From assembly GCF_021028975.2 (NCBI RefSeq), contig NC_059425.1:16182001-16246000 (forward strand): a stretch of 64,000 nucleotides of DNA. The letters run 5' to 3'. Source of the stretch: Sphaerodactylus townsendi (lineage: Eukaryota). Below, one piece after another: positions 4,345 through 62,736 of the stretch. The position numbers were made by a program, and so were the translations under genes. A model generated the notes under the pieces. That model was given only the letters and a program-made list of their open reading frames with translations. It made no database searches and was not told where the DNA came from. The first letter of the stretch is position 1. Each line of letters begins with the position of its first letter.

Positions 4345-4558
4345 CATCTATGGCTACCAATCTTGATCCTCCTTGATCTCAGATTGCAAATGCCTTAGCA
4401 GACCAGGTGCTCGGGAGCAGCAGCAGAAGGCCACTGCTTTCACCTCCTGCAAGTGAGCTCCCAAAGGCACCTGGTGGGCCACTGCGAGTAGCAGAGTGCT
4501 GGACTAGATGGACTCTGGTCTGATCCAGCAGGCTCGTTCTTATGTTCTTATGTTCTTA
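4345..4558 (+). mobile_element. CR1 LINE 3' fragment
   Basis: tatggctaccaatcttga (YGYQS*) plus a 3' UTR closely matching the larger CR1 copies, and (TTCTTATG)n tail. Confidence 0.9.
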
Positions 4559-4952: not shown

Positions 4953-5587
4953 ACCTTGAAAGGAAGATCTTGATTTTCCCAGAAGCAACCAACACAGCTC
5001 ATGTTGTTTTGAGGGCTACGAGTCAGCAGTCTTTGACCAGCTTCACTGTGTGCCTCAAATCCTACACAGACCTGAGCCGTGCCTACAGCCTTTTCTCTTA
5101 CGCCACCAGAAAGTCTGACAACGAGTTCCTTATCTTCAAACCCAAACCCAACCAATACAACTTGTATGTGGGGGGATCCATCGTGACCTACAGTGTAGCA
5201 GACAATCGAGTCCCCAAACCACAGTGGGAGCATATTTGCATGAGTTGGGAGTCTGCCACAGGAATAGTGCAGTTTTGGTTGAATGGGGAAAGCTTGCCCC
5301 GCAAGGGTATGAAGAAAGGTTATACTATTGGTTCTGAAGCTTCAATCATACTCGGGCAGGAGCAGGATTCCTTTGGAGGTGGCTTTGACATCAACCAATC
5401 CTTTGTAGGCGAGATTGCAGACCTGTATTTGTGGGGTCGAGTGCTTTCACCGGAAGAACTGGTCCTCGTTGGCAACGGTGGTCACCTTTCTGACTACTTG
5501 ATCGATTGGCGATCCCTTAATTACGAAATCAAAGGCTATGTGGTGGTTAAGCCCTCCCTGTTTCACTCCTACAGAACCCCCATGTAA
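4953..5587 (+). CDS. PTX-A exon 2, short pentraxin (CRP/SAP/mucosal-pentraxin-like) domain; spliced product 232 aa
   Basis: Acceptor cttttacag|AC, signature HICMSWES, FTVC cysteine, DNE motif and LGQEQDSFGGGFDINQSFVG Ca2+ loop. Open to TAA. Confidence 0.96.
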
Positions 5588-5801
5588 CTCTGCAAAACAC
5601 AGAGAACAAGGTGGGGGGAGGGGAGGATCATAATTACCATAACTAATGTTTCTGCATGGTAATGAGACGGCATTTCTAAGGCTATTTTCCTGGGAGTTAA
5701 GTCCCGCAGAATACCACAGGACTTACTTCTGAGTTGACCCGCTGTGGCTTGCTCTTTTAGTCCTCGATCTGTTTGTTCAAACACATAAACCTGTCTTCTT
5801 C

Positions 5802-19213: not shown

Positions 19214-19365
19214 NNNNNNNNNNNNNNNNNNNNNNNNNNNNNNNNNNNNNNNNNNNNNNNNNNNNNNNNNNNNNNNNNNNNNNNNNNNNNNNNNNNNNNN
19301 NNNNNNNNNNNNNNNNNNNNNNNNNNNNNNNNNNNNNNNNNNNNNNNNNNNNNNNNNNNNNNNNN
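19214..19365. other. Assembly gap (N run)
   Basis: Run of N. Confidence 1.
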
Positions 19366-22397: not shown

Positions 22398-22461
22398 ATG
22401 AGGAAGATGCTTCTTTCTCTCTTGCTCCTTGCTGGTCTCTGGGGCTCTCTTGCCCAGAAAG
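22398..22461 (+). pseudogene. PTX-B exon 1, signal peptide MRKMLLSLLLLAGLWGSLAQK
   Basis: 64-bp phase-1 exon with donor G|gtgggt, homologous to exon 1 of PTX-C to F. Confidence 0.88.
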
Positions 22462-22944
22462 GTGGGTGCCATTTTCAGCTGCATATGCCAGGGTGTTACC
22501 AGGATAGGTAACTGATTCACCATAAGGTTTTTTTTTAAGTGAGATTGTGCGTTTTTGAGTTTCCGTGGAAGCATGTGCAAAGGATTTGCGCCGGCCTTTT
22601 AAAGATTTTGTTTTCATTTTGAAGCTGTTTTTCATTTTCATTGTATTTGTAACATTCATTTTCATTGCCTAGTTCCATCTCTGGTTTTCTCTCATTGCAA
22701 CTGTCCTCCTCCTCCTCCTCCTCTACCTCTTTCCCCCAATTTTTGTGTGGTGGGGAACTGTCTTGTCTGCTTCCACTGCCGAATAATTGCTCCAGCGTGT
22801 CACTTGGGTGGGAAGAGACCCTCTTCACTTCAGACCCTGTTCACTTCAGACTGAAAATGGCCTGGTGGGAACTATATTTCCCATGAGACCATGGGGCCCG
22901 CAAGGTCTCCTGGGAAGTGTAGTGCCCACCATATAAGAGCTCGT

Positions 22945-23181
22945 CTATCTAATCTGGAGGAACAGGGTTTGATTCCCAGCTCTGCCGCCTGAGCTGTGGA
23001 GGCTTATCTGGGGAATTCAGATTAGCCTGTACACTCCCACACACGCCAGCTGGGTGACCTTGGGCTAGTCACAGCTTCTCGGAGCTCTCTCAGCCCCACC
23101 TACCTCACAGGGTGTTTGTTGTGAGGGGGGAAGGGCAAGGAGATTGTCAGCCCCTTTGAGTCTCCTGCAGGAGAGAAAGGG
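22945..23181 (+). mobile_element. Squam3-like SINE running into an assembly gap (23182-23424); another copy at 23545-23822
   Basis: gggtttgattcccagc B-box and family body sequence. Confidence 0.85.
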
Positions 23182-24013
23182 NNNNNNNNNNNNNNNNNNN
23201 NNNNNNNNNNNNNNNNNNNNNNNNNNNNNNNNNNNNNNNNNNNNNNNNNNNNNNNNNNNNNNNNNNNNNNNNNNNNNNNNNNNNNNNNNNNNNNNNNNNN
23301 NNNNNNNNNNNNNNNNNNNNNNNNNNNNNNNNNNNNNNNNNNNNNNNNNNNNNNNNNNNNNNNNNNNNNNNNNNNNNNNNNNNNNNNNNNNNNNNNNNNN
23401 NNNNNNNNNNNNNNNNNNNNNNNNCACCTGGAGAAAGGTATGATAAGGCGAATATGGGGAACTACATCCCCCAGGGTACGCCAGGGCACAGGGGAGGCCC
23501 GGATAAGAGAAGTTTTATTTTCCACTTGCCTGTTTTTGGAGCCAATGTGGGGTGATGGTGAAGAGCGGTGCAGTTTAATTTGGAAAACTGGGTTTGATTC
23601 CCTGCTCCTCCACATGAGTGGCAGACTCTTATCTGATGAACCGTTTTCCCCCACTCCTCCACATGAAGCTTGCTGGGTGAGCTTGGGTCAGATCCAGTTC
23701 TCCCAGCCCCACCTGCCTCACAAGGCGTCTGTTGTGGGGAGAGGAAGAGAAGGAGTTTGTCAGCCACCTTGAGTCTCCTTACAGGACAGAAAGGCAGGTA
23801 TGAATCCCAACTCTTCTTCTTCAAGGACCTGTCCCCCAGAAGTGGAAGCTGATAAACCTGTGAGGCAAAGTTAAGCGCTGGAAACGGGATGGTGGGAACT
23901 AATTGCCAAGGAATGAAGGAGCCAACCTCTCTGGCATGGCCCCCATCCAATTTCAGCAAAAGAAGATTTTTGAGGCAGCCATTTTGGCAAAGGGTGAAGA
24001 GATGAAACATGGG

Positions 24014-24382
24014 CAGAGGTGGGACCCAGCAGGTTCTCACAGGTTCCCTAGAGTAGGTTACTAATTATTTGTGTGTGCCGAGAGGGGGTTACTAATGGGT
24101 GATTTTGCCACACGATTTTGCCTTAATTACGCCCCTCCTCTCAGCAGTAGCGCACAGAACTTGAAGCAGTCTAGCAGGAGGTGCACCGCGTGCGTGGCAG
24201 CCTGCGCCTGCGTGCATTTGTTTCCCGCCCAAGGACCGGCGCAGCGGCTGCATCCTTGCCACAGCCCCGCCCAGGAATGCCCCGCCCCCATCGTACCCTG
24301 TCCAGCCCCATTGGCGCTACGCCACAGTTTGAATCCCACCACCATGGGAACCTGTTACTAAAATTTTTGGATCCCACCACTG
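24014..24382. mobile_element. hAT MITE in the PTX-B intron
   Basis: TIRs cagaggtgggac / gatcccaccactg and perfect TSD AACATGGG. Confidence 0.9.
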
Positions 24383-24701
24383 AACATGGGGTTGGATGTG
24401 ACTAGGGTTGCCAATTTCAGGTTGGGAAATTCCTGGAGATTTGGTGGGGGGTGTTGAGAGACAACGGGTTTTGTGGAGGGGAGGGGCCTCTGCAGGATAT
24501 AAGGCCAGAGAGCAGCTGTTTTCTCCAGAGAAACTGATTTTGTAGCCTGCAGTTCTAGGAGACCTTCTTGTACCATGTGGAGGATGGGAACCCTAGCTGA
24601 AACAAAATTCCTTTTTGGCAGAGCCATTATCTGCCACCAGTCGTTGTCCAATGGGAAATTTGGATGTTTGAGGTCAGAGGGAGCATGTGAAGAAGTCTGA
24701 T

Positions 24702-25061
24702 CAGAGTTGGGATCCAGCAGGTTCTCACAGATTCCCGAGAGTAGGTTACTAATTATTTGTGTGTGCCAAGAGGGAGTAACTAATTGGTGATTTTGCCGCA
24801 TGATTTTTGCCTTAGTTACGCCCCTCCTCTCAGCAGTAGCGCGCAGAACTTGAAGCAGCCTGCACCTGCATACATTCGTTTCATGCCCAAGGACCGGCGC
24901 AGTGACTGCGTCCTTGCCACAGCCCCGCCCAGGAATGCCCCGCCCCTGGAATGCCCAGCCATGCCCCTGTCGTGCCCCGCCCAGCCCCATTGGTGCTATG
25001 CCACAGTTTGAATCCCACCACCATGGGAACCTGTTACTAAAATTTTTGGATCCCACCACTG
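24702..25061. mobile_element. Second copy of the same hAT MITE in the PTX-B intron
   Basis: Same family with a different perfect TSD, AGTCTGAT, so an independent insertion. Confidence 0.9.
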
Positions 25062-25158
25062 AGTCTGATAGAGTAAAAAACCTAACATTTTTCAACATGC
25101 CTCGTGAAGTGCCCTTCAGGGCTTTCCTGCATATCCCTAACGGCTTTCCCCTCCTCAG

Positions 25159-25787
25159 ATCTCGAAAGGAAGGCGTTCGTTTTTCCAGAGGCATCAAAAA
25201 CGGCGCATGTGGTCTTGAAGCCCACAATGCGACGTCCGTTGACCAGTTTCACTCTGTGCATGAGGTTCCACTCGGCCCTGACCTGCGGCTACAGCCTCTT
25301 CTCTTATGCCACAAAGAGAAACCCCAACGCGATCCTCCTCTTTGTGAAGAAACCCAATCGATTCGATTTTTATTTGGGCGGTAAAGCGGTGCCTTCACGG
25401 TTGCACCAAACTATGTCAACAGCCATGCTGGGAGGCACATCTGCTTGAGTTGGGAATCTTCCACTGGCTTAGTGGAGTTCTGGATCAACGGTCAACCTCT
25501 GGTCCGGAAGAGCCTGAAGAAAGGCCATGCTGTCCCCACCGAGGCATCCGTTATCCTCGGCCAAGAGCAAGATTCCTTCAGAGGTGGCTTCGACATCAAA
25601 GAATCCTTCGTTGGGGAGATCACGGACATGTGGGATCGTGTTCTGTCTCCCGATGAAGTGGGCCAGGCCTGGTATGTTGACGATTTCCCTGGAAATGTAA
25701 TTAACTGGAAATCGTTAAAACTACAAAACCCAAGGTAATGTTATTGTGAAGCCCGCTCTGGCTTCGTTCTACAGAGCTCCTGGGTAG
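25159..25787 (+). pseudogene. PTX-B exon 2, pentraxin domain with frameshifts
   Basis: Acceptor ctcctcag|AT and DLERKAFVFPEAS start. A -1 nt shift near 25391-25393 gives a stop at 25446-25448. Also a 6-nt deletion near 25627 and a +1 A at 25717-25720. Corrected reading gives HICLSWES and ends YRAPG* at 25787. AATAAA at 25935-25940. Confidence 0.85.
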
Positions 25788-29820: not shown

Positions 29821-31289
29821 CTAATCAATAAGTCAATCAAACCTCTATTGGCATATTGACACCATGCCATAAAGTAAATAAAACCAGACTTAAAAATGAG
29901 ACACCTGGAAATCTTGTAACCTCATAGTGATTGAAAAGGACTTTGCCACAAACCAGTATCCAAAGGTCAACGATCCAGCGGCAGCAGTGACTAACCTCAG
30001 AAAGGTTAGTATAACTAGCAAGAAGTGAATCAATTATGGACTTGTGTAAATTGACATAGAAATCACAATGGAAAAGAACACGTGGAATACATTCAATGCT
30101 TTGGTTTCCACAGGGACATCATCTCTTTTGATCAGTTCCTGGGTCTTTCTCTGAGAAGACTGCAGAGGGAAGAACATTTAATTTGGCAAGCGTAAAAACT
30201 TATTGTGAGGAAGGTGGATTCAATGGCATTATATTCCACCGAAGTCCCTCCCCTCCATGAATCCCAGTTTCCTCAGGCCCCACCCCCTAATCCCCAGGTG
30301 TTTCCCAACCCAGAGCTGGCAAACCTAAAGAATGTGTTGTTGTCACAGAATGGCACACAGCTGAAGTTTGCCACCGATGGGATTTGGCTTCCCGGAATCT
30401 ATTCCACCTTCCTTTCCTCCTGCCTTAGTACTGGAACAGGCAAGGTGCCATTTTGACGGCCACCGCTCTGGTTTCAGGGCCTGACTGGAGTCAGCCTAAA
30501 GCACCCTTCCTTCCCACAGCTAATCCTCTCTTTAGTAGGGTTCCAAACCTCCAGATGGCACCTGGAGATCTGCTATTACAACTGATCTCCAGCTGACCAA
30601 TTTCAGTTACCCTGGAGAAAATGGCTGCTCAGGAAAGGGGACTCTATGGCAATATACCATGATGAAGTCCTTCTTTTCACCAAACCCCACCCTCTCCTAG
30701 GCTTCATCCCTAAACTCTCCAGGTATTTCTCAAGCCAGAACTGGCAAACCTAATCTTTGGTCAAGGTGTGCCCTGACATGCGGCCGCATTTGAGGCAGTA
30801 AGAACCTAGCGTGGGCGGAGCCCTGTTGTATTTCTATAGTTGGCTAAAGTGAAAACTGAGGCAGGATTTTCTAAAACAATATGAATGACAGGAGTGTCCA
30901 CTGGGACTAAGGGAGGTGCCTGAAGGATCACTGGATATATTGGGAGCCTGCAATAGGGGTGGTGATTTGATAAAACCAAATCACTTTAAACATCCCAAAA
31001 AAGTAATATTGGTTTTTTCGGGTTTTTAATTGACCAATAAGCCAAATAGCCATGGTGCCCCAAAAGCCGAACATGTTTCAGATTTTTCTGTGTGTTGAGG
31101 GAGAGCTTCAAATGAATACAGGACTCTTTTCCATCATTCAGTTGAAGCTCTCTCCACCATGGTTTCCCAGGTCTACGTGAAAAAGAAGAGCTTGCATTTA
31201 TACCCCAGCTTTTTCTCCTGTATGTAGTCTCAAAAGGGCTTGCAAACTCCTTCCCTTCCTCTCCCACAACAGACACCTTGTGAGGAAGG

Positions 31290-32735
31290 TGGAGCTGAGG
31301 GGGTTCTGAGAGAACTGAGACTAGCCCAAGGTCACAATACCAGAAGGATGGTATCCCGGAAGGTCATCCAGAAGACTTCATGTGCAGGGAAACAAATCTA
31401 ATTCACCAGAGAAAAATCTGCTGTTCATGTGGAGGAGTGGAGAATCAAACTCGGTTCTCCAGATTTCAGTCCACTGCTCTTAACCACCACATCACACTTG
31501 ACCTGGGAAATGGGAGTGCAGAGCTTCAACTGAATGCTGGCCTCCAATCCAACCTTCAGCTGAAGCTATCCCCCCTGTTGGTGGACATACATTATTAGCA
31601 GAGTTTAACAGATACCGAGTATGTGTTCCTGCATTGCAGGAGGTTGGACTTGATGGCCCTTGTGGTCTCTTCCAACTCTATGATGCTATGATACCAATAA
31701 AGACCCAGATACTAGTGAGTTGCTCAGTATAAAGGTTTGTTAGCTAAAAGGGCAGAGTAACCATCAAGAAAAACAATACTGCACTGTACGTGTGCTGAGA
31801 CAGCAGTAGCCAGAAGAATTCTGGCCCATCTCTTAACTCGGTAAATACTTTCAAGGAGCATATTGCTTGCTGTTTACACTTTACAACAATGTCAACAAAG
31901 TTGAGGACTATAATAAGAACAGCAGTTCCAAGGAAAAGACACATTTACTGACCTCAGACAGAGCTGCTTCCATTCCAGTTCCTAGCTCCCATATTGTCCT
32001 AAGCTGATCCTGTTTTTTGTCAGGAGTGGCACCTGCCTCCTTCCAACCTCAGACCAGGAGGCGCCAAGAGCCACATCTGGGCTAGGGGGAAATTGGTTTG
32101 GCTGGGGCGAGAGTGTGAATGCTGACTTTGTATGTAATCACCTGTTTAAATGTAATGGATCTTTTGTTCTGTATCAATGCACGTAGAAATGTAGATAACT
32201 AGGGCACCCCTGTTGGGCTCCGGATGGGACGAGGGAGGTCTGGACGCCATGGGGACAATCCGCCAGGAGGCTATCGCTGTGCCCTTGGGATTCTTGCTTT
32301 CCACAACAAAGTCTTTCACACCTCGTTGTTCCCACGTTCTCTGTACTGGAGGGAGGGGGGAGTTGGAGGAATCGGTAAGGGATAAAGGTTACTGTACAAG
32401 CCAGGATCTTTAGATTTGGCTTTCTGAAGCTGAGTGCCTGGGCCAACCCAATGAAGACTTCTGATTCCAAACTCTAGACCTAATATTGTTAGCCCCTTGA
32501 GTAGCTATTATTGACTAAGCTACGCCTACTTCTGGCTACATAGCAGCCACATTACGATTATATAAAGCATCAAGGTTATTTTTCAGCAACACAGTAGAGT
32601 TTCCTTTTAAAGGATGTCATTGAGGACTCAACTTTGATGTGGATTTTCAATAGAGGAGTAGTGAATTTAGCATTACAGCCAAGGACTTTTTGGCCAGATT
32701 ATGGATAAGCTGACTAAACAGCAATTAAGGGGTTT
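31290..32735. repeat. Upstream arm of a segmental duplication; inverted copy at ~56680-58320
   Basis: Long unique-sequence matches in reverse complement, e.g. aaccttcagctgaagctatcccccctgttggtggacatac. Confidence 0.9.
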
Positions 32736-32740
32736 TTTTT

Positions 32741-33200: not shown

Positions 33201-33618
33201 GAAATGTGACTAGTCCAGGGGTCTGCAGCCAATTGGCCATGCTAGCGGGGGCTGATGGGAATTGTAGTCCATGAACATCTGCAGACCCCTGGACTAGTCA
33301 AAGTTCACCCAGCAGGAATGTAGGAGTGCTGAAACACATCTGGTTCACCAGGTAAACCCCTGCCACTCAGGTGGAGAAGTGGATAATCTCCAGAATCTCC
33401 AGAATCCACCTGCCTGTAACCACAACAGGACGCTGGCTTTATTCAGTAAATAAATACTGAATAAAGTGCCTCACCCTTCTCAGTTCACGGGTATATTTTG
33501 GAAGGGCTCTTCAGCTCCCACTTCAGAATCGGCCTGTAAAGGGGACAAGACACTGAGCAACCCTCACGTCTTGGACGCTGCTCCATTTTTTACTTCGATC
33601 CCTCTGGAATTGGCCATC

Positions 33619-33682
33619 ATGCGGAAGATGCTCCTCTCTCTCCTCCTCCTCGTCAGCCTGGTGGGCTCTCTCGCTCTGGAAG
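33619..33682 (+). CDS. PTX-C exon 1, signal peptide MRKMLLSLLLLVSLVGSLALE
   Basis: 64-bp phase-1 exon, donor G|gtgggt. Confidence 0.92.
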
Positions 33683-33944
33683 GTGGGTATCATCACAGTA
33701 GGACAAGAGCCTCCACATGCTTCAGCCGAAGCATCTAGATTTGACTCCAGTAGAACATTAGATGCCAATAATAATTTAAGGGAACGAGCGTACAAGAGAT
33801 CTAGCAGACTCATAGAGATGGATTGTTGAAGGCTTTCACAGTCAGAATCAATGGGCTGTTGACAGTGTTGAGAGATTTCTGGTCCATGTGGCCGTAGTCT
33901 GGTAGGTTTTTTTGCTCCTAACATGATACCTGCATCTATACCTC

Positions 33945-34207: not shown

Positions 34208-34676
34208 GCTGGCATCTTGGGATGCATGTCAAGACAAGGTAAGATTATCTCTATGGTATGGTGTGGAGTGATTGTGTGGTGCGATACCTCTTTTGTGTAT
34301 CTCACTCTTCACCCATGTGTGAAAACAGAAACCCCATGACACAATCACGGGATGCACATCTTACCACGACACGCCTCTAAAGATGCCAAGACACCTTAGC
34401 CACAAAAACTACCAGATCAGGGCTACGTATCCTGGAAAACCCTCAGCTGCCCACACAGCTTCTGAAACTGAAAGCATTTTCCTTAAACAAAATTATGCAG
34501 TTTTGAGTTTCTGTCTGGAGATGTTTGTCTTGCTGGGAATGAGCCCTCTCCTCCCCCTCCCCATTTTCATGGTTGCATTTAATCCTTCTCGTCCACCCAA
34601 CAGCATGTGCTGTGTGCTATGAGGTGACTGGTTTGGTTGACTCTGCGACTGGGGGCCAGGCTAGGTTAGGCTAGTG

Positions 34677-34817
34677 CAGGGGTCTGCAACCTGCGGCTCT
34701 CCAGATGTTCATGAAGTACAATTCCCATCAGCCCCTGCCAGCATGGCCGATGCTGGCAGGGGCTGATGGGAATTGTAGTTCATGAACATCTGGAGAGCCG
34801 CAGGTTGCAGATCCTTG
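34677..34817. mobile_element. Palindromic hAT MITE in the PTX-C intron (same insertion as 61787-61927 in PTX-F)
   Basis: Perfect TSD GGCTAGTG. Same site and same variant TIR (atccttg) in PTX-F; absent in D and E. Confidence 0.9.
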
Positions 34818-35035
34818 GGCTAGTGGCAGAAGAATGTGGCCAGTTAGGCAACAGGTGGGTTGGAAGAGAATCCCTCTCTTGTTGGGGGGAAGGGAAATCA
34901 TTAATTCATTTGCCCTCTGAATTAATATATATTCTCAATCAGCAAGCAAATGTTTTTCACAAAAGACCCTCTGGGACATGACCTCTCTTGCAGAATGACA
35001 GTTTTGCCCAACCCTGATTCTCTTTCCCTCCGCAG

Positions 35036-35661
35036 ATCTGGAAGGGAAGGCATTGGTTTTCCCGGAAGCATCAGACACAGCCCATGCACGCTTGAACGTC
35101 ACGATCCAGCAGCCCCTGTCGAGCTTCACCCTGTGCCTAAGATACCTCACAGAAATAAAGCGCACCCAAACCCTTTTCTCTTACGCAAGCAAGAGGACTG
35201 ACAACGAGATAGCTCTCGACAGATACGATCTGGGTTACCAGCTTTATACACAGGGGCTTACCTATGCAGACTTCAAGGTTCCGGAAATATTAACCAGCAA
35301 CTCTCTTGGGGAGCACGTTTGCGTAAGTTGGGAGTCTGCCACAGGCTTAGCTGAGCTCTGGGTGAACTGGAGGCCCTTGGTCCGGAAGAGCTTGCAGAAA
35401 GGCCACTCCGTCATGGCTGAAGGATCCATTGTTCTTGGACAAGACCAGGATAATGTTGGAGGGGGCTTTAACATCAACGATTGCTTTGTAGGGGAGATCA
35501 CAGACGTGTACATGTGGGACCGTGTTCTGTGCCCCGACGAGGTGGTCCATGCCTTTCACAACCACCCTCTTCCAGGCTACCTGATCAACTGGAGATCACT
35601 GAGTTACAGCATTAAAGGCTATACCAAGCCTGCCTTGTTGTCTGCCTGCAGAACTGGGTAG
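35036..35661 (+). CDS. PTX-C exon 2, short pentraxin domain; spliced product 229 aa
   Basis: Acceptor ctccgcag|AT, HVCVSWES, DNE, GQDQDNVGGGFNINDCFVG. Open to TAG. Confidence 0.94.
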
Positions 35662-36685
35662 GGGTTGCAAATAACTCACTGGTCTATGAAGGTGGGGAGG
35701 GGAGAGCAAGTTAACCGAACATTTCTGCATGGTAATTCAATACATAGATTCTGCTCTACTAATCTGGGATAACAGTGTAGTAACTGTAGTCATTATAGTA
35801 GCCATTGTACTAATGCAGCATAGCTATTCCCTTGCTAATCTTTTCCTGATGAGTTTGCAAGGTGATGGAGAGTATTAAAGCATTCTTTTAAAAACAAAAC
35901 TGTCAGTGAACTCTGTTTGCTCTAAGTTCCTTTCATCTTGGACAGTTTAATGCAGGGGTTACAGAGAAATTATATTAATTGCTTTTTAACGGTGCTTCAG
36001 AGTTGATTGGCCTTCTTATCTTGCTATATCGGATATAACTCTTATACCCTTGCTAATTGGCTCATTCTGCACTTGTTGATCATTTCATAGTTGGTGGAGA
36101 ACCAGTCACTAGTCTAGATCGTAATCATGGGATCATGACAGAACAGATTTTGAAAAGAAATATGACCAACCTTTTTCTATAAATACACAGTGATGTCATA
36201 ACCAAATCAGATTTCTCCGAAGTCTCAGAAGATGAGGTGAAGTTTCTGGGTATGTAACTTGGGCCTTTTGATAATGCCTGAACTACCGACTGAAAGCTGG
36301 TTTGCTTTTTAAAGAGGAAGAAGAGTTGGTTTTCATGCCCTGCTTTCCTCAATCTTCAAGGAGTCTCAAATCAGCTGACAAATTCTTTTCCCTTCCCTTC
36401 CTCGCAAGAGACACCTTGTGAGGTAGATGGGGCTGAGAGAGTTCTGAGAGAACTGTGACTGGCCCAAGGTCACTCAGCAGGCTTCATATGGAGGAGTGAG
36501 CAATCAAACCCAGTTCTCCAGATGAGAGTCCACAGCTCTTAACTACTCCCAACACGATGGCTACAAACTGTTATTCACTATATTGTGATTAAACAATGCT
36601 AGGAAGCTTGATCAATTTTAGCACTTATTTTTTCAGTAATTGTAAGGTTAATTTTCACAAGCTTTTATTTCTTACTGTCTTGCGT

Positions 36686-37737: not shown

Positions 37738-38687
37738 TTTCAGCTAAATTCGCGTTTTGCAGACAAGAGCTAAAGCTGCTAACATATGATAGGTCAATTG
37801 GATCTGCTCAAGTCTCCACCTAGTGTTTGTCTATGATGCGTAGGAGTAGTTTGACACAAGACTTGCATCTAACATATTTGGTTTTTCACAGGTATTTACT
37901 ATTTCAGCCAAATTCGCGTTTTGCAATCCTGTGCTAAAACTGTTAACATATGATAGGCCAAAGGGATCTGTTCAAGTCTCCACCTAGTTGTATATAATTC
38001 TGTTTGCTGAGTAACAAGCAGAATCTAGCTTTGTGCACAACTTTAAAATAAGAACAGTTATCTTGTTAAAGACCAGCCTTTTAACCTCAGAAATCGTAAA
38101 CAAAAGACCTTTGCTTATAGTAAGAGAGAAATGGATTATATACATATAAGAATCACATGCATCAGTACATTCACAGTTCATCATTTGGTTACGATTTGGT
38201 TACCGTAACAAGCATCGCTTACAATATTTAACTTTCAGTCAGAGGCTTTTACGCAGAACACTCAACAACATCATTCCTCAGCAGAGACAGGGAGCTAACT
38301 GTTCCCAACTGTCACTTTTAGAATGTTTGTTGAGATCTCCCAGAATTCCGTGCTGCTGCATGCAAGGCTGTAAAATCCAACAGGTAGAGCATCCCAATCG
38401 CAAGATGCCATAGTCCCTCTGTACACGGCTCTGGTCTGGCTGTGTTCTGTTCCCCAAGTAAAACAATCTTTGATGCCCTGTACTTGGCCAGAACAGAGTG
38501 GGAGACTCTCAAGCAAGGTGTAACAGTTTTTTTTTTAAAAAAAGGTTTATTGCTTAGAAGAATTGAGGCCCTAACTCCTCCCAGGGTCTGACTAAGATAA
38601 GGTACTTGCTTGACTGGAACAACTTGAAGCTTGAGACTTTTATTCTTTCTTGACTTCTTCCAAGAAAGTCCACTTTGTCTGTGCTTC

Positions 38688-44752: not shown

Positions 44753-45384
44753 CTACCCAGCTCTTTGGGCAGACAGCAGGGCAGGCTTAACAAGGGCATA
44801 GCCTCTGATGCTGTAACTCAGTGATCTCCAGTTGATCAGGTAGTCAGGAAGAGGGTAGTTGTGAAAGGCAAGGACCACCTCGTCGGGGCACAGAACACGG
44901 TCCCACATATACAAGTCTGTGATCTCCCCTACAAAGCAATAGTCGATGTCAAAGCCCCCTCCAAAGTTATCCTGGTCTTGTCCAAGAACAATGGATCCTT
45001 CAGCCATGACGGAGTGACCTTTCTGCAAGCTCTTCCGGACCAAGGGCCTCCCGTTCACCCAGAGCTCAGCTAAGCCTGTGGCAGACTCCCAACTTACGCA
45101 AACGTGCTCCCCAACCGAGTTGCTGGTTAACATGTCGGGAACCTTGAACTCTACATAGTTACCCCCCAGCATATAAAGATGGTAGGCAATATTGTTTCTG
45201 TTGAGAACAATCTCGTTGTCATTCCTTTTGCTTGCGTAAGAGAAAAAGGTTTGGCGGTGCTTTATTTCTGTGAGGTATCTTAGGCACAGGGTGAAGCTCG
45301 ACAGGGGCTGCTGGATCGTGACGTTCAAGCGTGCATGGGCTGTGTCTGATGCCTCCGGGAAAACCAATGCCTTCCCTTCCAGAT
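44753..45384 (-). CDS. PTX-D exon 2, short pentraxin domain; spliced product 231 aa
   Basis: Acceptor ctccgcag|AT on the minus strand, HVCVSWES, DNE, GQDQDNFGGGFDIDYCFVG. Intact ORF. Confidence 0.95.
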
Positions 45385-45820
45385 CTGCGGAGGGAAAGAG
45401 AATCAGGGTTGGGCAAAACTGTCATTCTGCAAGAGAGGTTATGTCCCAGAGGGTCGGTCGTGAAAAACATCTGCTTGCTGATTGAGAATATCTGTTGATT
45501 CGGAAGGCAAATGGATCAATGATTCCCCTTCCCCCCAACAAAAGAGAGAGATTCTCTTCCAACCCACCTGTTGCCTAACTGGCCACATTCTTGAATCACT
45601 AGCCTGGCCCCCAGTTGCAAAGTCAGCCAAAGCAGTCATTTTCACAGTACAGAGTACATGCTGTTGGGTGGAGGAGAAGAATTAATCGCAACCATGAAAA
45701 TTGTGTGTGTGTGTGTTTGTGTGTGCTCATTCCCAGCAAGAAAAACATCTCCAAACAGAAACTCCAAACTGCATCACCTTGTTTAAGGAAAATGCTTTTG
45801 GTTTCAGAAGCTGTGTTGGC

Positions 45821-45888
45821 GATTGAGGGTTTTCCAGGATTGAGGGTTTTCCAGGATTGAGGGTTTTCCAGGATTGAGGGTTTTCCAG
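45821..45888. repeat. 4 x 17-bp tandem repeat GATTGAGGGTTTTCCAG in the PTX-D intron
   Basis: Four perfect copies. The paralogous introns have a single copy. Confidence 0.95.
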
Positions 45889-46325
45889 GCCTGGTCGTTT
45901 TTGCGACTAAGGTTGCACTGCATCTGGGGCTGGCATCCTCAGAGGCATGTCATAGTAAGATGTGCTTCTCTCTGTGGCATGGGGTGTCTGTTTTCTCCAC
46001 TTCACAATCACTCCACATCGTGCCACAGAGAGAATCTTATCTTCTCACGACACACCTCCGAAGATGCCAGCCATAGATGCAGGCATAATGTTAGGAGCAA
46101 ACACTACCAGACTACGGCCACATGGACCAGAAAGCTCTCAACAGCCAATTGATTCTGACTGTGAAAGCCTTTTCACAATTCATAACTGTATTAGTCTATG
46201 GTAGATCTTTTCTACGCTCATTCCCTTAGAATATTATTGGCACCTAATGTGCTACTGGGGTCAGATCTAGATGCTTCGGCTGAAGCATGTGGAGGATCTT
46301 GTCCCACTGTGTTGATGACACCCAC

Positions 46326-46389
46326 CTTCCAGAGCGAGAGAGCCCACGAGGCTGAGGAGGAGGAGGAGAGAGAGGAGCATCTTCCGCAT
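46326..46389 (-). CDS. PTX-D exon 1, signal peptide MRKMLLSLLLLLSLVGSLALE
   Basis: 64-bp phase-1 exon, donor G|gtgggt. Confidence 0.93.
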
Positions 46390-46669: not shown

Positions 46670-46958
46670 ACCGAACATTTCTGCATGTTAATTCAATACG
46701 CAGATTCTGCTCTACTAATCTGCGTTAACAATGTAGCAACTATAGTCCATATTGTAGCCACTAATGTAGTGAACTATTACCTCGCTAATCTTTTCCTGCT
46801 GAGTTTGCAAGGTAATGAAAATTATTCAAGCATTCTTTTAAAAACAAAAGTGTCAGTGAACTCTGTTTGCTCTAAGTTCCTGTCATCTTGGACAGTTGAA
46901 TGCAGGGGTTACAGAAAAATTAGACTGATTGCTTTTTAATGGAGCTTCAGAGTTGAGA
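46670..46958 (+). pseudogene. Orphan pentraxin 3'-UTR fragment inverted into the PTX-D promoter
   Basis: Matches 35716-36006 (PTX-C 3' UTR) and the D, E and F UTRs. No coding exon attached. Confidence 0.85.
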
Positions 46959-47549
46959 AACATTTATTCCCCACTCCTCCTCCTGAGTGGCAGAGACTTA
47001 TATGGTGAACCAGGTGTGCATTCCTGCTGGGTGACCTCAGGTCAGTCACAGTTCTCTCAGAACTCTCTTAGCCCCACCTATCTCACAAGGTGTCTGTTGT
47101 AGGGAGAGGAGTTTGTAAGCCACCTTGAGTCTCCTTACAAGAGAGAAAAGTAGGGTATAAATCCAAATTCTTCTCTTCTTCTTCTATAGAGGGATATCTT
47201 ATGATCTACAGCATGACATCTTATGATTTGGATGTTCTACCTCTGTGGATACATGCTTTGATGCAGGTCTTGATCACTTTCCCAGTTTAAATTAAAAACC
47301 AAACAGAGGCCTCCCACTTTGAAAAACTGGCCTCCTGTGGCTTCACCTGGGGTTTCATTAGAAGACTGCTCTACCTGTGTGAGATGTGCTGAGCATTGGT
47401 TGGCTGCTACATTCCTATGCAGTTGACCATGGAGCCCCAGCATCCCACTCTGTGATTGGCGGGCATTGGCGTAATGAGAGATTCCAGTCCCACATCCAAT
47501 CAGAGAATCCAGACTAAACAATTCCAAAAGGTTCTCCTTATACAGACTA

Positions 47550-49929: not shown

Positions 49930-50561
49930 CTACCCAGCTCTGTGGGCTGACAGTAGGGCAGGCTTAACAAGGGCATAGCCTCTAATGCTGTAACTCAGTG
50001 ATCTCCAGTTAATCAGGTAGCCAGGAAGAAGGTAGTTGTGAAAGGCAAGGACCACCTCGTCGGGGCACAGAACACGGCCCCACATGTACACGTCTGTGAC
50101 CTTCCCTACAAAGGATTGGTTGATGTCAAAGCCCCCTCCAACGTTATCCTGGTCTTGCCCGATAACCACGGATCCTTCAGCACTGACGGAGTGACCTTTC
50201 TGCAAGCTCTTCCGGACCAAGGGCCTCCCGTTCACCCAGAGCTCAGCTAAACCTGTGGCAGACTCCCAACTTACGCAAACGTGCTCCCCAATCGAGTTGC
50301 TGGTTAGTATGTCTGGAACCTTGAACTCTACATGGGTAAGCCCCTCTATATTAAGCTGGTAACCATTATTGCTTTTGTAGAGGGCGATCTCATTGTCAGT
50401 CCTCTTGCTTGCGTAAGAGAAAAGGGTTTGGAAGCCCTTTATTTCTGTGAGGTATCTTAAGCACAGGGTGAAGCTCGTCAGGGGCTGCTGGGTCGTGATA
50501 TTCAAGCGTGCATGAGCTGTGTTTGATGCCTCCGGGAAGACCAACGCCTTCCTTTCCAGAT
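49930..50561 (-). CDS. PTX-E exon 2, short pentraxin domain; spliced product 233 aa
   Basis: Acceptor ctcctcag|AT, HVCVSWES, DNE, GQDQDNVGGGFDINQSFVG. Intact ORF. Confidence 0.95.
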
Positions 50562-50998
50562 CTGAGGAGGGAAAAAGAATCAGGGTTGGGCAAAACTTTC
50601 ATTCTGCAATGGAGGTTATGTCCCAGAGTGTCTGTTGAGAAAAACATCTGCTTGTTGATTAAGAGTATATCTGAATTTGGAAGGCAAATGAATAAATGAT
50701 TCCCTTTCCCCCCCAACAAGAGAGAGATTCTCTTCCAACCCACCTGTTGCCTAAGTGGCCACATTCTTGAGCCACTAGCCCAACTTAGCCTGGCCCCCAG
50801 TCGCAGAGTCCACCAAAGCAGTCATTTCACAGCACAGAGCACATGCTGTTGAGTGGAGGAGAAGAATTAAATGCAACCATAAAATGGAGGTGGGTGGGTC
50901 AAAGAGTGCTCAATTCTGCAAGGCAAACATCTCCAAACAGAAACTGTTGGTATTTTTTCAAGAGTTTGTCACACTTCAATCATGAAAGGGTTAACTGT

Positions 50999-52550
50999 CT
51001 TCCCTGAAGACTAAAAGATGGCCAATGTCACACCAATCTTTAAGAAAGGATCTAGGGGGGACCCAGGAAATTACAGGCCAGTCAGTTTGACATCTGTTCC
51101 TGGTAAATTAGTAGAATCTATCATTAAAGATAAAATTATTAAACATGTAGAAAAGCAAGACCTGCTGAGGAAGAGTCAGCATGGCTTTTGCAGAGGCAAG
51201 TCCTGTCTTACAAACTTACTAGAGTTCTTTGAGGGTGTAAACAGGCATGTGGATAAGGGGGAACCAGTGGACATTGTCTACTTGGATTTCCAAAAGGCTT
51301 TTGACAAAGTTCCTCACCAGAGACTATTGAGAAAACTCAGCAATGAAGGAATAAGAGGGGAAGTCCTCCTATGGATTAAAAACTGGTTGAGAAACAGGAA
51401 GCAAAGAGTGGGTGTAAATGGGAAATTTTCACAATGGAGAGATTTAGGGAGTGGTGTCCCCCAAGAATCCGTTTTGGGACCAGTGCTCTTTAACCTTTTC
51501 ATAAATGACCTGGAAGTAGGGGTGGGTAGCATGGTGGCCAAGTTTGCAGATGATACCAAATTATGTAGGGTGATGAGAACCGCAAAGGATTGCGAAGAGC
51601 TCCAAGCGGACATTGATAAATTAGGTGAGTGGGCTAAGAAATGGCAAATGCAGTTCAATGTAGCAAAATGTAAAGTGATGCACATAGGGGCAAAAAATCC
51701 AAATTTCACATACAAGCCACAGGGGTCAGTGCTATCAGTCACAGACCAGGAAAGGGATTTAGGCGTCTTAGTTGATAGTTCCATGGGAATGTCAACTCAA
51801 TGCATGGCAGCTGTGAAAAAGGCAAACTCTATGCTGGGGATAATTAGGAAAGGATAATAAAACTGCAAAGATTGTCATGCCCTTATATAAAGCAGTGGTG
51901 CGACCGCACTTGGAGTACTGTGTCCAGTTCTGGTCGCCACATCTCAAAAAGGATATGGAAGAGATGGAAAAAGTGCCGAGAAGGGCAACGAGAATGATTG
52001 AGGGATTGGAGCACCTTCCTTATGAAGAGAGACTGCAGCGTTTAGGGTTCTTTAGTTTGGAGAGGAGACGTCTGAGGGGGGATATGACTGAAGTTATAAA
52101 ATTGTGCATGGGGTAGATAATGTTGACAGAGAGAAATTTTTTTCTCTTTCTCACAATACTAGAACCAGGGGACATACATTGAAAATGCTGGGGGGAAGAA
52201 TAAGGACTAATAAAAGGAAACACTTCTTCATGCAATGTGTGATTGGTGTTTGGAATATGCCGCCACAGGAGGTGGTGATGGCCACTAACCTGGATAGCTT
52301 TAAAAAGGGCTTGGACAGATTTATGGAGAAGTCGATCTATGGCTACCAATCTTGATCCTCCTTGATCTCAGATTGCAAATGCCTTAGCAGACCAGGTGCT
52401 CAGGAGCAACAGCCGCAGAAGGCCATTGCTTTCACATTCTGCATGTGAGGTCCCAAAGGCACCTGGTGGGCCACTGCGAGTAGCAGAGAGCTGGACTAGA
52501 TGGACTCTGGTCTGATCCAGCTGGCTTGTTCTTATGTTCTTATGTTCTTA
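50999..52550 (+). mobile_element. CR1 LINE (RT domain to 3' end)
   Basis: ANVTPIFKKG..NYRPVSLTS, YLDFQKAFDKVPH, FADDTKL. Small frameshifting deletions, (TTCTTATG)n tail, apparent TSD ttaactgt. Confidence 0.95.
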
Positions 52551-52661
52551 ACTGTGTGCATCTTAAGTAGTTACTGAGATCCCAGTTTTATGGCCAATCT
52601 ATCGATTAACAATCGATAGATTGTTTGAGCCCTGTTGGGAAAGGGCGGTATATCAAATTTA

Positions 52662-52720
<59 letters not shown>

Positions 52721-52734
52721 CAACAACAACAACA

Positions 52735-53002
52735 AGGACCTACAAATTGAAGTTGAACGATTGTGGCAGAAAAGAACAACAGTAATCCCACTAGTAGTCG
52801 GTGCTCTAGGAGGAATCCCAAGAAATCTTGAAAAACATCTGGAAAGCCTAAACTTGGACAGAACATCAGTCCACATGCTGCAGAAAGCAGCACTTCTAGG
52901 AACTGCACACATTCTACGCAAATACCTCTAATATCCTAGGTCCTTGGGAAGGACTCGATATTCAGAGATGAATTCCAGACACTTGTGCTGTGTTGTTATG
53001 TG

Positions 53003-53003
<1 letters not shown>
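52735..53003 (+). mobile_element. R4/Dong LINE 3' fragment inside (TAA)n
   Basis: KDLQIEVERLWQK..VIPLVVGALGGIP..LQKAALLGTAHILRKYL*, flanked by (TAA)n(CAA)n at 52665-52734 and (TAA)n at 53004-53092. Confidence 0.88.
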
Positions 53004-53093
<90 letters not shown>

Positions 53094-53113
53094 GATCAGG
53101 TAGTTAGACATTG

Positions 53114-53458
53114 TATTGTCTAACACAAACACAGGATGACTATAGACAGTAAACAATCAAAGGGAACAAAGGCCAGGCTACTTCTATTCAGATGCCCTCA
53201 CCTATTGACCTTGCTATCTTCATTGTTACTCACATGCTAATGAGTGAATCCTACTCAACACATGTGAATGTAGGTTGCTAATTGCACCCTTTACTTGTTA
53301 ACAGAAAATGGTTCTTTCCCCCACCCTGGACACTCCAACATTCCACTTGCTTTCCTACTATCAGATCCTCTGAAGCTGCCAGCCACAGATGCAGGCGAAA
53401 CGTCAGGAGAGAATGCTGCTAGAACACGGCCATACAGCCCGGAAACCACACAGCACCC
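53114..53458 (+). mobile_element. Penelope-like fragment with pseudo-LTR and hammerhead motif (53366-53408)
   Basis: Homologous to 32770-33090, with a 13-bp flanking duplication tagttagacattg (53101-53113, 53459-53471). Confidence 0.82.
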
Positions 53459-53901
53459 TAGTTAGACATTGCTTCCATATTAGTGGTTATGCAGTCAGAG
53501 GTTATAAAGTTAACTCTGTCTTCTTTGTTTAAGCTCAAGAGGTAGCAATATGTAACCAAGGGTAGTGCTATAGAAAGGTGTTGTTGTTTTTCCTCTATGT
53601 AACCCCCATGCTAATAGTTAGTAAACTCATTTATACTAAAGCAACTGAGAATCTGTCTTTTCTGTTACTTTGCTAATTTTTCCCTACAGAAATTCCAAAC
53701 TGCTTAATTTTTTTAAAGGGAAAATGCTTTGGGTTTTAGAAGTTGAGTGGGCGGTTGAGGGTTTTCCAGTATGTGAAGCCCTGGCTAAGGTTTCGTTGCA
53801 TCTGTGGGTGGCATTTGTAGAGGCACGTCAGGGTAAGATGTGCTTCTCTCTGTGCCATGGGGTGTCTGTTTTCTCCACCTCACACATGGGTGAAGAGTGA
53901 G

Positions 53902-54816
53902 GTAAACTATGTAGGGTGGTGAATACCACAAAGGATTGCGAAGAGCTCCAAGCGGACCTTGATAAATTAGGTGAGTGGGCTCAGAAATGGCAAATGCAGT
54001 TCAATGTAGCAAAATGTAAAGTGATGCACATAGGGGCAAAAAATCCAAACTTCACATACACGCTACAGGGGTCAGTGCTATCAGTCACAGACCAGGATAA
54101 ACTCTATGCTGGGGATAATTAGGAAAGGAATTGATAATAAAACTGCAAAGATTGTCATGCCCTTATATACAGCAGTGGTGCGACCGCACTTGGAGTACTG
54201 TGTTCAGTTCTGGTCGCCACATCTCAAAAAGGATATCGAAGAGATAGAAAAAGTGCAGAGAAGTGCAACGAGGATGATTGAAGGATTGGAGCACCTTCCT
54301 TATGAGGAGAGACTGCAGCGTTTGGGACTCTTTAGTTTGGAGAGGAGACGGCTGAGCGGGGATATGACTGAAGTCTATAAAATTATGCATGGGGTAGAAA
54401 ATGTTGACAGAGAGAATTTTCTCTCTCTTTCTCACAATACTAGAACCAGGGGGCATTCATTGAAAATGCTGGGGGGGAGAATTAGGACTAATAAAAGGAA
54501 ACACTTCTTCACGCAACGTGTGATTGGTGTTTGGAATATGCTGCCACAGGAGGTGTTGATGGCCACTAACCTGGATAGCTTTAAAAGGGGCTTGGACAGA
54601 TTTATGGAGGAGAAGTCGATCTATGGCTACCAATCTTGATCCTCCTTGATCTCAGATTGCAAATGCCTTAGCAGACCAGGTGCTCGCAGAAGGCCATTGC
54701 TTTCACCTCCTGCCTGTGAGCTCCCAAAGGCACCTGGTGGGCCACTGTGAGTAGCAGAGTGCTGGACTAGATGGATTCTGGTCTGATCCAGCAGGCTAAT
54801 TCTTATGTTCTTATGT
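53902..54816 (+). mobile_element. CR1 LINE 3' portion with an internal deletion
   Basis: ELQADLDKL..RPHLEYCVQFWSP..YGYQS*, 3' UTR and tail. Confidence 0.93.
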
Positions 54817-55083
54817 TAAACAAAACAGATATCCACCACACAATCACTCCACACCTTGCCACAGAGGGAAGCACTTGTCATGAGACGTGCCTCTGAAGAT
54901 GCCACCCACAGATGCAGGCATAACGTTAGGGGCAAAAACTACCAGACTAACTGTATTAGTCCATAGTAGATCTCTTGTACACTCGTTCCCTTAAAATCTT
55001 ATTGGTCTCTAAGCTGCTGCTGGAGTCAAATCTAGATGCTTCAGCTGATGCATGTTGAGGTTTTTGTCCCACTGTGATGACAC

Positions 55084-55271
55084 CAGAGGTGGGATCCAAC
55101 CAGTTCTCACCACTTCTCTAGAAGTGGTTACTAATTTTTTCTGCCGAGAAGGGGTTACTAAAGCAACCTCCCTGCCCAATAGGGACTGGAGGTGCGTGTG
55201 TGCGGCGGCGCCACTGTTTGAATCCCACCACCATCGGAACCCGTTATTGAAATTTTTGGATCCCACCACTG
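55084..55271. mobile_element. hAT MITE 12 bp inside the PTX-E splice donor
   Basis: TIRs cagaggtgggatcca / tggatcccaccactg and perfect TSD GATGACAC. Confidence 0.9.
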
Positions 55272-55283
55272 GATGACACCCAC

Positions 55284-55353
55284 CTTCCAGAGCGAGAGAG
55301 CCCACGAGGCTGAGGAGGAGGAGGAGGAGGAGAGAGAGGAGCATCTTCCGCAT
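55284..55353 (-). CDS. PTX-E exon 1, signal peptide MRKMLLSLLLLLLLSLVGSLALE (two extra Leu)
   Basis: 70-bp phase-1 exon, (CTC)n expansion, donor G|gtgggt. Confidence 0.92.
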
Positions 55354-60444: not shown

Positions 60445-60574
60445 NNNNNNNNNNNNNNNNNNNNNNNNNNNNNNNNNNNNNNNNNNNNNNNNNNNNNNNN
60501 NNNNNNNNNNNNNNNNNNNNNNNNNNNNNNNNNNNNNNNNNNNNNNNNNNNNNNNNNNNNNNNNNNNNNNNNNN
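60445..60574. other. Assembly gap in the PTX-F 3' UTR
   Basis: Run of N. Confidence 1.
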
Positions 60575-60936: not shown

Positions 60937-61568
60937 CTACCCAGCTCTTTGGGCAGACAGCAAGACAGGCTTAACAAGGGCATAGCCTCTGATGCTGTAA
61001 CTCAATGATCTCCAGTTAATCAGGTAGCCAGGAAGAGGGTAGTTGTGAAAGGCAAGGACCACCTCGTCGGGGCACAGAATACGGTCCCACATATACAAGT
61101 CTGTGATCTCCCCTACAAAGGATTGGTTGATATCAAAGCCCCCTCCAAAGGTATCCTGTTCTTGCCCGATAACAATGGATCCTTCAGCACTGACGGAGTG
61201 ACCTTTCTGCAAGCTCTTCCGGACCAAGGGCTTCTCGTTCACCCAGAGCTCAACTAAACCTGTGGCAGACTCCCAACTTACGCAAACGTGCTCCCCAACA
61301 GAGTTACTGGTTAATATTTCCGGAACCGTGAAGTCTACTTTGGTAAGCCCCTCTATATAAAGCTCGTAGCCAATATTGTTTCTGTTGAGAAGAATCTCGT
61401 TGTCAGTCCTCTTGCTTGCGTAAGAGAAAAGGGGTTGGATGTGCTTTATTTCTGTGAGGTATCTTAGGCACAGGGTGAAGCTCGTCAGGGGCTGCTGGAT
61501 CGTGGTCTTCAAGCGTGCATGGGCTGTGTCTGATGCCTCCGGGAAAACCAATGCCTTCCCTTCCAGAT
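60937..61568 (-). CDS. PTX-F exon 2, short pentraxin domain; spliced product 231 aa
   Basis: Acceptor ctcctcag|AT, HVCVSWES, DNE, GQEQDTFGGGFDINQSFVG. Intact ORF. Confidence 0.95.
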
Positions 61569-62672
61569 CTGAGGAGGGAAAGAGAATCAGGGTTGGGCAA
61601 AACTGTCATTCTGCAAGAGAGGTTATGTCCCAGAGGGTCTTTTGTGCAAAACATTTGCTTGCTGATTGAGAATATATATTAATTCAGAGGGCAAATGAAT
61701 AAATGATTCCCCTTCCCCCCAACAAGAGAGAGATTCTCTTCCAACCCACCTGTTGCCTAACTGGCCACATTCTTCAGCCACTAGCCCAAGGATCTGCAAC
61801 CTGTGGCTCTCCAGATGTTCATGAACTACAATTCCCATCAGCCCCTGCCAGCATCGGCCATGCTGGCATGGGCTGATGGGAATTGTAGTTCATGAACATC
61901 TGGAGAGCCGCAGGTTGCAGACCCCTGCTTAGCCTAACCTAGCCTGGCCCCCAGTCAGAGTCAACCAAACCAGTCACCTCATAGCACACAGCTCAAGCTG
62001 TTGGGTGGAGGAGGAGAATTAAATGCAACCATGAAAATCGGGGGGGGGGGGGGGCTCATTCCCAGGAAGAGGGAATCTCCAAACAGAATCTCCCAACTGC
62101 ATAATCTTGTTCAAGGAAAATGCTTTGTGTTCAGAAGCTGTGCTGACTGCTGAGGGTTTTCCAGGACGCGTAGCCCTGGTCTGGTTGTTTTTGTGGCTAA
62201 GGTTTTGCTGCATCTATGACCGGCATCTTTAGAGGCATGTCATGGTAAGATGTACTCCTCTCCATCCCGTGGTGTGGAGTGGAGTGATTGTGCCATGGGG
62301 TGTTTGTTTTCACACATGGACCGAAGAGTGAGGTAAACAAAAGAGATATCCCATCACACAATCGCTCCACACTGTGCCACAGAGATGATCTTATCTTTTT
62401 TGTGACATGCCTCCAAAGATGCCTGCCATAGATGCAAGTATAATGTTTGGAGCAAAACCTACCAGACTAGAAATCTCTCAACACTGTCAACAGCTAATTG
62501 ATTCTGGCTGTGAAAGCCTTTGACAATACATAACTGTATTAGTCTGCTGTAGATCTCTCATATGCTTTTCCCTTAAAATATTATTGGCATCTAATGTGCT
62601 ACTGGAGTCACATCTAGATGCTTCGGCTGAAGCATGTGGAGGCTCTTGTCCCACTGTGATGATGATACCCAC

Positions 62673-62736
62673 CTTCCAGGGCGAGAGAGCCCACGAGGCT
62701 GATGAGGAGGAGGAGAGAGAGGAGCATCTTCTGCAT
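62673..62736 (-). CDS. PTX-F exon 1, signal peptide MQKMLLSLLLLISLVGSLALE
   Basis: 64-bp phase-1 exon, donor G|gtgggt. Confidence 0.93.

Follow-up and report, generated by a model that had tools for sequence, protein, structure and literature searches.

The stretch of DNA analysed here (the window, 64 kb from the gecko Sphaerodactylus townsendi) carries a cluster of pentraxin genes. In particular, the second exon of the gene designated C matches the pentraxin profile of Pfam (PF00354, E=3e-59), and a tblastn search with gene C retrieves five further copies: D, E and F on the minus strand, with 81-83% identity to it, A with 49%, and B, which is frameshifted. Genes C, D, E and F each consist of a signal-peptide exon and an uninterrupted second exon, that is, they are intact two-exon short pentraxins, and S. 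townsendi database entries include their exon-2 proteins without a single letter changed. Passages of a published description of the family (PMC5446266) list, as features of short pentraxins, a signal peptide, the signature H/SxCxS/TWxS, two conserved cysteines and, in lizards, two coding exons. All four genes encode HVCVSWES, an instance of this signature, together with C33 and C95, and the signal peptide was called by eye from the hydrophobic exon 1. The AlphaFold model of the gene C protein (mean pLDDT 83) has human SAP and CRP as its closest structures (Foldseek TM 0.81-0.82 against 1sac and 1b09/1gnh), so that both the PF00354 domain and the pentraxin fold place gene C among the short pentraxins.

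A tree was built from 37 proteins (32 gecko or other-lizard rows from databases or the window, plus outgroups, picked from 120 listed matches), and in it C to F form one clade (100/99) that is sister to one Euleptes protein (100/99), and separate expansions are found in Euleptes, Paroedura, Heteronotia and Gekko. The Euleptes outgroup enters these comparisons at the protein level, and the gene copies compared are those within the window. Gene A (2384-5590, +) is an intact copy as well; it falls in a different, conserved clade, with Euleptes P0037 as its sister, and it retains the equivalents of CRP F66, E138 and Q150. Gene B (22399-25760, +) has a normal-looking exon 1, an exon 2 split over two frames (25161-25370 and 25394-25717) and two codons missing near TD-MW; it is likely a pseudogene. 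For D and E, the UniRef models (P0002 and P0004) have N-termini that differ from the signal-peptide exon in the window, and they likely carry mis-predicted first exons. Runs of N occupy 19214-19365, 23182-23424 and 60445-60574, the last in the 3' flank of F.

Table 1. Features of the four recent paralogs and sequence blocks along gene C (window coordinates).
Feature	Position	Strand	Remarks
Gene C exon 1	33619..33682	+	signal peptide; phase-1 GT donor
Gene C exon 2	35036..35661	+	pentraxin domain; intact frame; 6-nt in-frame deletion near C-terminus
Gene D	44753..46389	-	exon 1 46389-46326, exon 2 45384-44753; opposite orientation to C
Gene E	49930..55353	-	exon 1 55353-55284, exon 2 50561-49930; repeat insertions swell intron
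Gene F	60937..62736	-	exon 1 62736-62673, exon 2 61568-60937
Promoter and exon 1 block	33467..33689	+	C+F|D+E at 6/6 informative sites
3' intron block	34565..34963	+	C+F|D+E at 10/10 informative sites
Palindromic MITE	34677..34817	.	141 bp; 8-bp target-site duplication; common to F (61787-61927)
C-D near-identical tract	34964..35160	+	5' side of pocket segment; 3 differences/197 bp; identical runs 86, 94 bp
Hypervariable pocket segment	35161..35310	+	codons 42-91; no resolved tree; divergence island
Mid-exon block	35311..35495	+	C+D|E+F; includes second calcium loop (CRP 138-150 = codons 136-148)
3' flank block	35662..36420	+	C+E|D+F at 15/22 informative sites

In human CRP, according to passages of a 2019 review (PMC6503050), choline is bound by F66, T76 and E81, and calcium by D60, N61, E138, Q139, D140, E147 and Q150; the abstract of the same review defines a CRP by two of three properties, namely a cyclic oligomer, calcium-dependent phosphocholine binding and cross-reactivity. 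These residues were mapped by HMMER alignment to CRP and by strand positions in the gene C model, with a hairpin register that is uncertain by one, and the choline side then corresponds to codons 59-76. Four calcium ligands (D60, N61, Q139 and D140) are invariant in C to F. Given in the order C/D/E/F, E138 corresponds to D/D/D/E, E147 to N/D/D/D and Q150 to D/Y/Q/Q. On the choline side, the equivalents of F66 are D/N/Y/N, those of T76 are Y/Y/N/Y (T/M/I/I with the register shifted by one) and those of E81 are Y/Y/H/K. On this mapping, none of the four proteins appears to carry the phosphocholine-pocket residues of CRP.

Other features concern the subunit as a whole. Extra cysteines occur at codon 149 in C and D (35482-35484) and at codon 165 in all four genes (35530-35532), and the serine-to-cysteine change at codon 149 is likewise found in Euleptes, Gekko and Zootoca paralogs. 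Gene C has a private 6-nt in-frame deletion at 35625, in the last strand, confirmed with zero differences by a read-derived contig (X4 record 24), and also carries G111W. Since the last strand of CRP presumably forms part of the subunit interface, the gene C protein may assemble differently. In gene E, codon 153 (equivalent to 35494 in C) encodes lysine, with glutamate in C, D and F; this is the position of CRP D155, which we take to form an inter-subunit salt bridge.

The alignment of C to F comprises 1647 gap-free columns (34565-36420 of C; a 27-bp poorly aligned stretch was removed) and 57 informative sites. A previous sequence-only reading of this DNA had proposed that the pairings of the four genes switch along their length and that no single tree fits them. 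Both statements are borne out, as every pairing that it had listed is found in the alignment and each tree is rejected in some block. Specifically, the sites grouping C+F|D+E, C+D|E+F and C+E|D+F number 10, 1 and 0 in the 3' intron, 4, 12 and 8 in exon 2, and 3, 4 and 15 in the 3' flank. The AU test rejects CD|EF (p=0.0035) and CE|DF (p=0.0033) in the intron, CD|EF (p=0.021) and CF|DE (p=0.007) in the 3' flank, and CE|DF (p=0.008) and CF|DE (p=0.0006) in the mid-exon block, the edges of which were picked post hoc; over whole exon 2 only CF|DE is rejected (p=0.030; CE|DF p=0.082). As the intron and flank borders are annotation limits, the conflict between their trees is independent of post hoc edges. 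Moreover, the 57 sites fall into 17 runs (p=1e-5 by permutation; PHI-like p=5e-5), and 34 of them show a minority pattern, against 13-14 simulated on one tree with gamma rates (p=0.0005). In other words, the four genes hold a clustered incompatible signal beyond parallel mutation.

Within exon 2 alone, minority sites number 12 against 4.4-5.1 expected (p=0.0025-0.005), and 7 against 1.8 at third codon positions (p=0.002), with borderline clustering (p=0.07 in the runs test; PHI-like p=0.026, 0.048 and 0.46 at 50, 100 and 200 bp). The excess is non-significant for third positions of amino-acid-invariant codons alone (3 against 1.5, p=0.18) and for first and second positions alone (5 against 2.5, p=0.11), and the protein-level pairings among the four genes are unclustered (8 sites, 6 runs, p=0.66). 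A Sawyer-type fragment test, corrected sixfold, singles out the pair C and F at 34609-35205 (p=0.002) and the pair C and E at 35687-35768 (p=0.006) on silent sites, and the pair C and D at 34986-35161 (p=0.002) on all sites; on silent sites C and D give corrected p values of 0.85 and 1.0, and when mismatches are disallowed one of the six pairs, C and E, is significant. The PHI-like and Sawyer-type tests are our own scripts, distinct from PhiPack and GENECONV, and a set of four sequences yields neither the direction of transfer nor a distinction between conversion and paired crossovers.

The blocks contain tracts of low divergence that belong to different pairs. In the promoter and exon 1, D and E differ at 3 of 209 positions and the remaining pairs at 15-19, whereas immediately within the intron D and E differ at 19 of 113. 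In the 3' intron, C and F differ at 10 of 238 positions, against 25-29 in the other pairs. C and D show 7 differences in the 185 bp of the mid-exon block, and C and E share a 61-bp identical run past the stop codon. Altogether the supported tracts measure 100-450 bp, fall within the promoter, the intron, scaffold codons and the flank, and span divergences from 1.4% to about 12%. The intron tract includes the MITE, which is presumably hAT-like and, judged from contig depth, very high-copy. The copies of C and F are identical at 138 of 141 positions and share non-symmetric end changes; E has a clean empty site, and D is without both the element and a further 10 bp, between two GGCTAG repeats, so that its absence from D could be a later deletion. 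The grouping of C+F against D+E, drawn earlier from the MITE and the adjoining intron, is upheld independently by 10 of 11 neighbouring informative SNPs. As for the further pairings that the earlier reading had drawn from the acceptor ccgcag/cctcag (35032) and PLSS/PLTS (35119), both C+D against E+F, from VEFKVPD (35271 and 35286), D+E against C+F, from VMAEGSIVLG and CFVG (35414-35483), C+D against E+F, and from DVY/DLY (35506, plus the silent 35511), C+E against D+F, each occurs as described.

The pocket segment, so called because it is predicted to line the ligand pocket, behaves differently from the tracts that surround it. It holds the equivalents of CRP D60, N61, L64, F66, S74, T76 and E81, and within its 150 bp each pair of genes shows 21-30 differences; between C and D, 19 of 44 residues differ. 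No tree is favoured there by the AU test (p=0.14, 0.48 and 0.65), and no multi-site tract within it is significant in the Sawyer-type test, which has low power with four sequences. Minority sites number 6 against 2.5 expected on the CD|EF tree (p=0.04) and 4 against 2.0 on the best tree (p=0.16). For C and D, silent divergence is 5/144 in the flanking codons and 6/35 within codons 42-91 (p=0.008); compared with their non-coding background of 149/949, the flanks are low (p=1.5e-5) and the inside is not (p=0.81). A divergence peak, that is, a segment at background level between flanks of low silent divergence, is thus shown for this pair, one of six, on the strength of 11 silent differences. As regards the encoded residues, codons 59-78, a window chosen post hoc, have 20 variable sites among their 40 first and second positions; the non-coding figure is 233 of 1015 (Fisher p=0.0002), and the maximum for non-coding 40-site windows is 17. 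Figures for the six codons equivalent to the CRP pocket are 8 of 12 (Fisher p=0.002), and for the calcium-ligand codons 2 of 14. Pooled dN/dS over codons 42-91 is just 1.06 (dN 0.20, dS 0.19) and third positions in codons 59-78 are variable too (7 of 20), so that relaxed constraint could also account for the pattern. The pocket segment likely diversified mainly through point mutation rather than swapping.

The patchwork of C to F likely arose through ordinary gene conversion. Specifically, we regard it as rather more probable than any other account that conversion homogenises tracts between changing pairs of genes, and that the pocket segment escapes and diversifies by substitution under selection. 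According to this reading, an ancestor of the four genes would have undergone tandem and inverted duplication following the split from Euleptes. Repeated ectopic conversion, in tracts of a few hundred bases, would then have joined differing pairs at differing times, and the span of tract divergences would reflect their different ages. Selection would remove conversions that erase a pocket and favour new pocket residues, and the outcome would be four secreted pattern-recognition pentraxins with differing, probably non-phosphocholine, putative ligands. As a by-product, the C+D block, which takes in the second calcium loop, would occasionally re-pair loop and pocket variants. The earlier conclusion of recurrent exchange between paralogs is supported by three incompatible blocks, by pair-specific tracts of differing depth and by local phase in read-derived contigs.

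Proteins of other geckos show related patterns, with the reservation that these are database models and may be mis-assembled. The two members of a Gekko japonicus pair (P0007/P0013) are identical over the last 99 residues but show 19 mismatches among the 44 residues of the pocket segment, and in their N-terminal halves they group with G. kuhli paralogs (runs p=0.006, protein level). Among four Euleptes paralogs the grouping switches once (p=0.037, protein level). A Paroedura picta pair (P0021/P0029) is identical over 61 residues, including all 44 of the pocket segment, and differs at 27 of 124 beyond, which indicates that the pocket is sometimes included. One Gekko pair, compared at the protein level, shows a tract in which paralogs resemble each other more than their orthologs. 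Recombination among gecko pentraxin paralogs thus looks recurrent and looks able to fall on either side of the pocket.

The sequence-only reading had gone further, and had proposed that recurrent short-tract conversion or unequal exchange shuffles binding segments and generates new specificities, as in MHC-like families, a view that would make such tracts the chief source of these. In its favour are the excess of incompatible sites in exon 2 alone, the Paroedura pair with its entire pocket segment in common, and several shared residues: the derived M126, L133 and C149, around the second calcium loop, are common to C and D, V140 to C and E, and D83 to D and E. Gene E has the equivalents of D138 and N141 as in C and D, and Q150-S151 as in F. 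In addition, E-type contigs of two public read sets (X1 and X4) have F's letter at 35276 (K80T) between the E letters at 35271 and 35286, an allele that is not in the window; at this one site, micro-conversion or recurrent mutation may be responsible. Changes of the S151C, E138D and V/L157 type, however, recur in other lizard and gecko paralogs, so that the sharing of single sites is cheap, and the protein-level pairings do not cluster. Two of the motifs on which the proposal was built lie in the pocket segment. The pairing of C+E at IAL..YQL exists, but IAL amounts to a single nucleotide (35213), next to which C and E carry different letters (35211 and 35214), and this does not make a tract. 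The pairing of D+F at LNRNNI is real too, but it is largely ancestral: Euleptes has FRNNI, and with this outgroup RNNI of D and F is the ancestral state and C and E were altered separately. Over codons 59-78 the longest run identical in any pair is 21 bp, largely ancestral, and the pocket-segment differences are mostly private amino-acid changes. Since most of the tracts with support fall elsewhere than in the pocket segment, neither the shuffling of binding segments nor the origin of new specificities by tract exchange is shown. As the main process we consider it unlikely; the shuffling of segments possibly survives as a secondary effect.

A second alternative, which we judge improbable and less well placed than the previous one, is that the patchwork goes back to one-off structural events, i.e. 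hybrids made by unequal crossover or by inversion between inverted copies, with no ongoing conversion. The three large blocks would need just four breakpoints, with one unbroken gene, two with a single switch and one with a double switch. The layout of the cluster also speaks for such events. C is inverted relative to D, E and F; its far upstream DNA is matched only by E (31230-32738 against 58329-56674, inverted) and its far downstream DNA only by D (37985-38344 against 43208-42849, inverted). At the promoter of D, a 3'-flank remnant in + orientation (46670-47548) begins exactly where the homology of the D upstream region to E stops (46669), with more flank pieces of opposite orientation behind it; it may be a rearrangement junction or a lost fifth copy. 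With such scars present, crossovers probably contributed. A crossover with C, on the other hand, would invert the intervening DNA rather than simply yield a hybrid, and the low-divergence tracts are internal, with an edge at either end, as with D and E at the intron border or with C and D, which are close only in the sequence flanking the pocket. Repeated conversion would account for short, bounded tracts of differing depth more readily than would a handful of crossovers that make hybrids. The introns themselves differ in length (about 4.7 kb in E, 1.1-1.4 kb or less in C, D and F), and another small element, likewise with a target duplication of 8 bp, sits just past the splice donor of E (about 55085-55275, -).

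Very little speaks for a star tree, in which near-simultaneous duplication and parallel mutation at fast sites dispense with any exchange: it accounts for individual pocket-segment motifs and agrees with the non-significant excesses at silent and at first and second positions, but parallel mutation would not cluster as the 17 runs do, would not reach 34 minority sites and would not place in two genes a MITE with common end changes, so that it is rejected for the unit as a whole.

Equally remote is an artefact of assembly, in which the consensus mixes reads of similar paralogs. Contigs of four public runs were compared over 34770-35900 (X1 and X2 come from one study, X4 from another), and 23 pieces from X1, X2 and X4, among 32 listed of about 30,000, were compared with the window genes by substitution count, and letter by letter for the difference rows listed (40 of 192). 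Seventeen of the 23 match one window gene's count exactly and the other six are within one. E-type contigs of 338 bp (X1 record 1) and 277 bp (X2 record 9) carry D+E-type intron and E+F-type exon letters together, X1 record 7 crosses the stop codon of E, and X2 record 14 and X4 records 21 and 22 (E- and D-type) span C+D|E+F and C+E|D+F sites. Consequently, short-read contigs from two studies repeat the local patchwork of E and D, where a consensus artefact would have undone the earlier reading; besides, 1-4% of sites remain different within the homogenised tracts. On the other side stand the N gap in the 3' flank of F, identical runs between C and D, as long as 94 bp, across which short-read contigs give no phase, long-range phase that contigs do not bridge for C, D and F, and the circumstance that one compared run may be the source of the window assembly. 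On balance, a mosaic made by assembly is unlikely. Two further observations in the contigs were set aside. X2 record 10 (34860-35096, about 2x single-copy depth, F-like with G at 35032) resembles a fresh homogenisation of C and F, but contig building may merge or drop similar paths; and the three sequence types of X1 against four in X2 (34860-35550, no F type) resemble copy-number variation, but contig filtering could explain them.

Repeated conversion around a diverging pocket can be compared with systems already described. C to F share with the short pentraxins CRP and SAP the signal-peptide exon plus one domain exon, the HxCxSWxS motif, the two cysteines, the fold and D60/N61/Q139/D140; they differ in being four recent paralogs in which the F66, T76 and E81 equivalents are replaced throughout, E138 is kept only in F and Q150 only in E and F, and extra cysteines are present. 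Human red and green opsins, in passages of PMC3924837, likewise combine homogenised paralogs with a functional segment that remains diverged, whereas C to F are four copies with changing partners and 3-4% residual divergence, and show the pattern for one pair only. Avian TLR2A and TLR2B, as described in passages of PMC3125219, are paralogous receptors of innate immunity whose N- and C-terminal parts have undergone conversion, unlike the centre; in their case several species and very small p values are involved, against the DNA of one genome and protein-level hints in other geckos here. MHC, plant R-gene and immunoglobulin conversion (passages of PMC3924837) also concern clustered immune paralogs that swap sequence, but there conversion makes new binding-region haplotypes, whereas C to F, in one genome, have no significant multi-site pocket tract. 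By analogy, C to F are closer to the divergence peak of opsins and TLR2 than to MHC conversion.

The evolutionary process is thus a textbook one, and the pentraxin family is a new instance of it; a search of titles and abstract beginnings, covering few subscription journals, turned up nothing on conversion between pentraxin genes or on pentraxin clusters of geckos. For reptiles, passages of the 2019 review (PMC6503050) state that CRP protein had not been isolated from any species. A young set of four genes in which all pocket residues differ, with probable conversion around them, points to the codons that most probably determine ligand specificity, and C to F constitute a small natural panel for binding assays. 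Moreover, gene trees and orthology calls of reptile CRP/SAP-like genes vary with the part of the gene that is used. The short pentraxin family is commonly viewed as one or two conserved genes. A bolder possibility, to which we give a low probability, is that the short pentraxins of geckos might be a germline-diversifying repertoire, with new pockets driven by selection, pocket and calcium-loop halves re-paired through recombination in several gecko lineages independently, and mixed rings of combinatorial specificity. If true, homogenised scaffolds would allow the paralogs to co-assemble into such rings.
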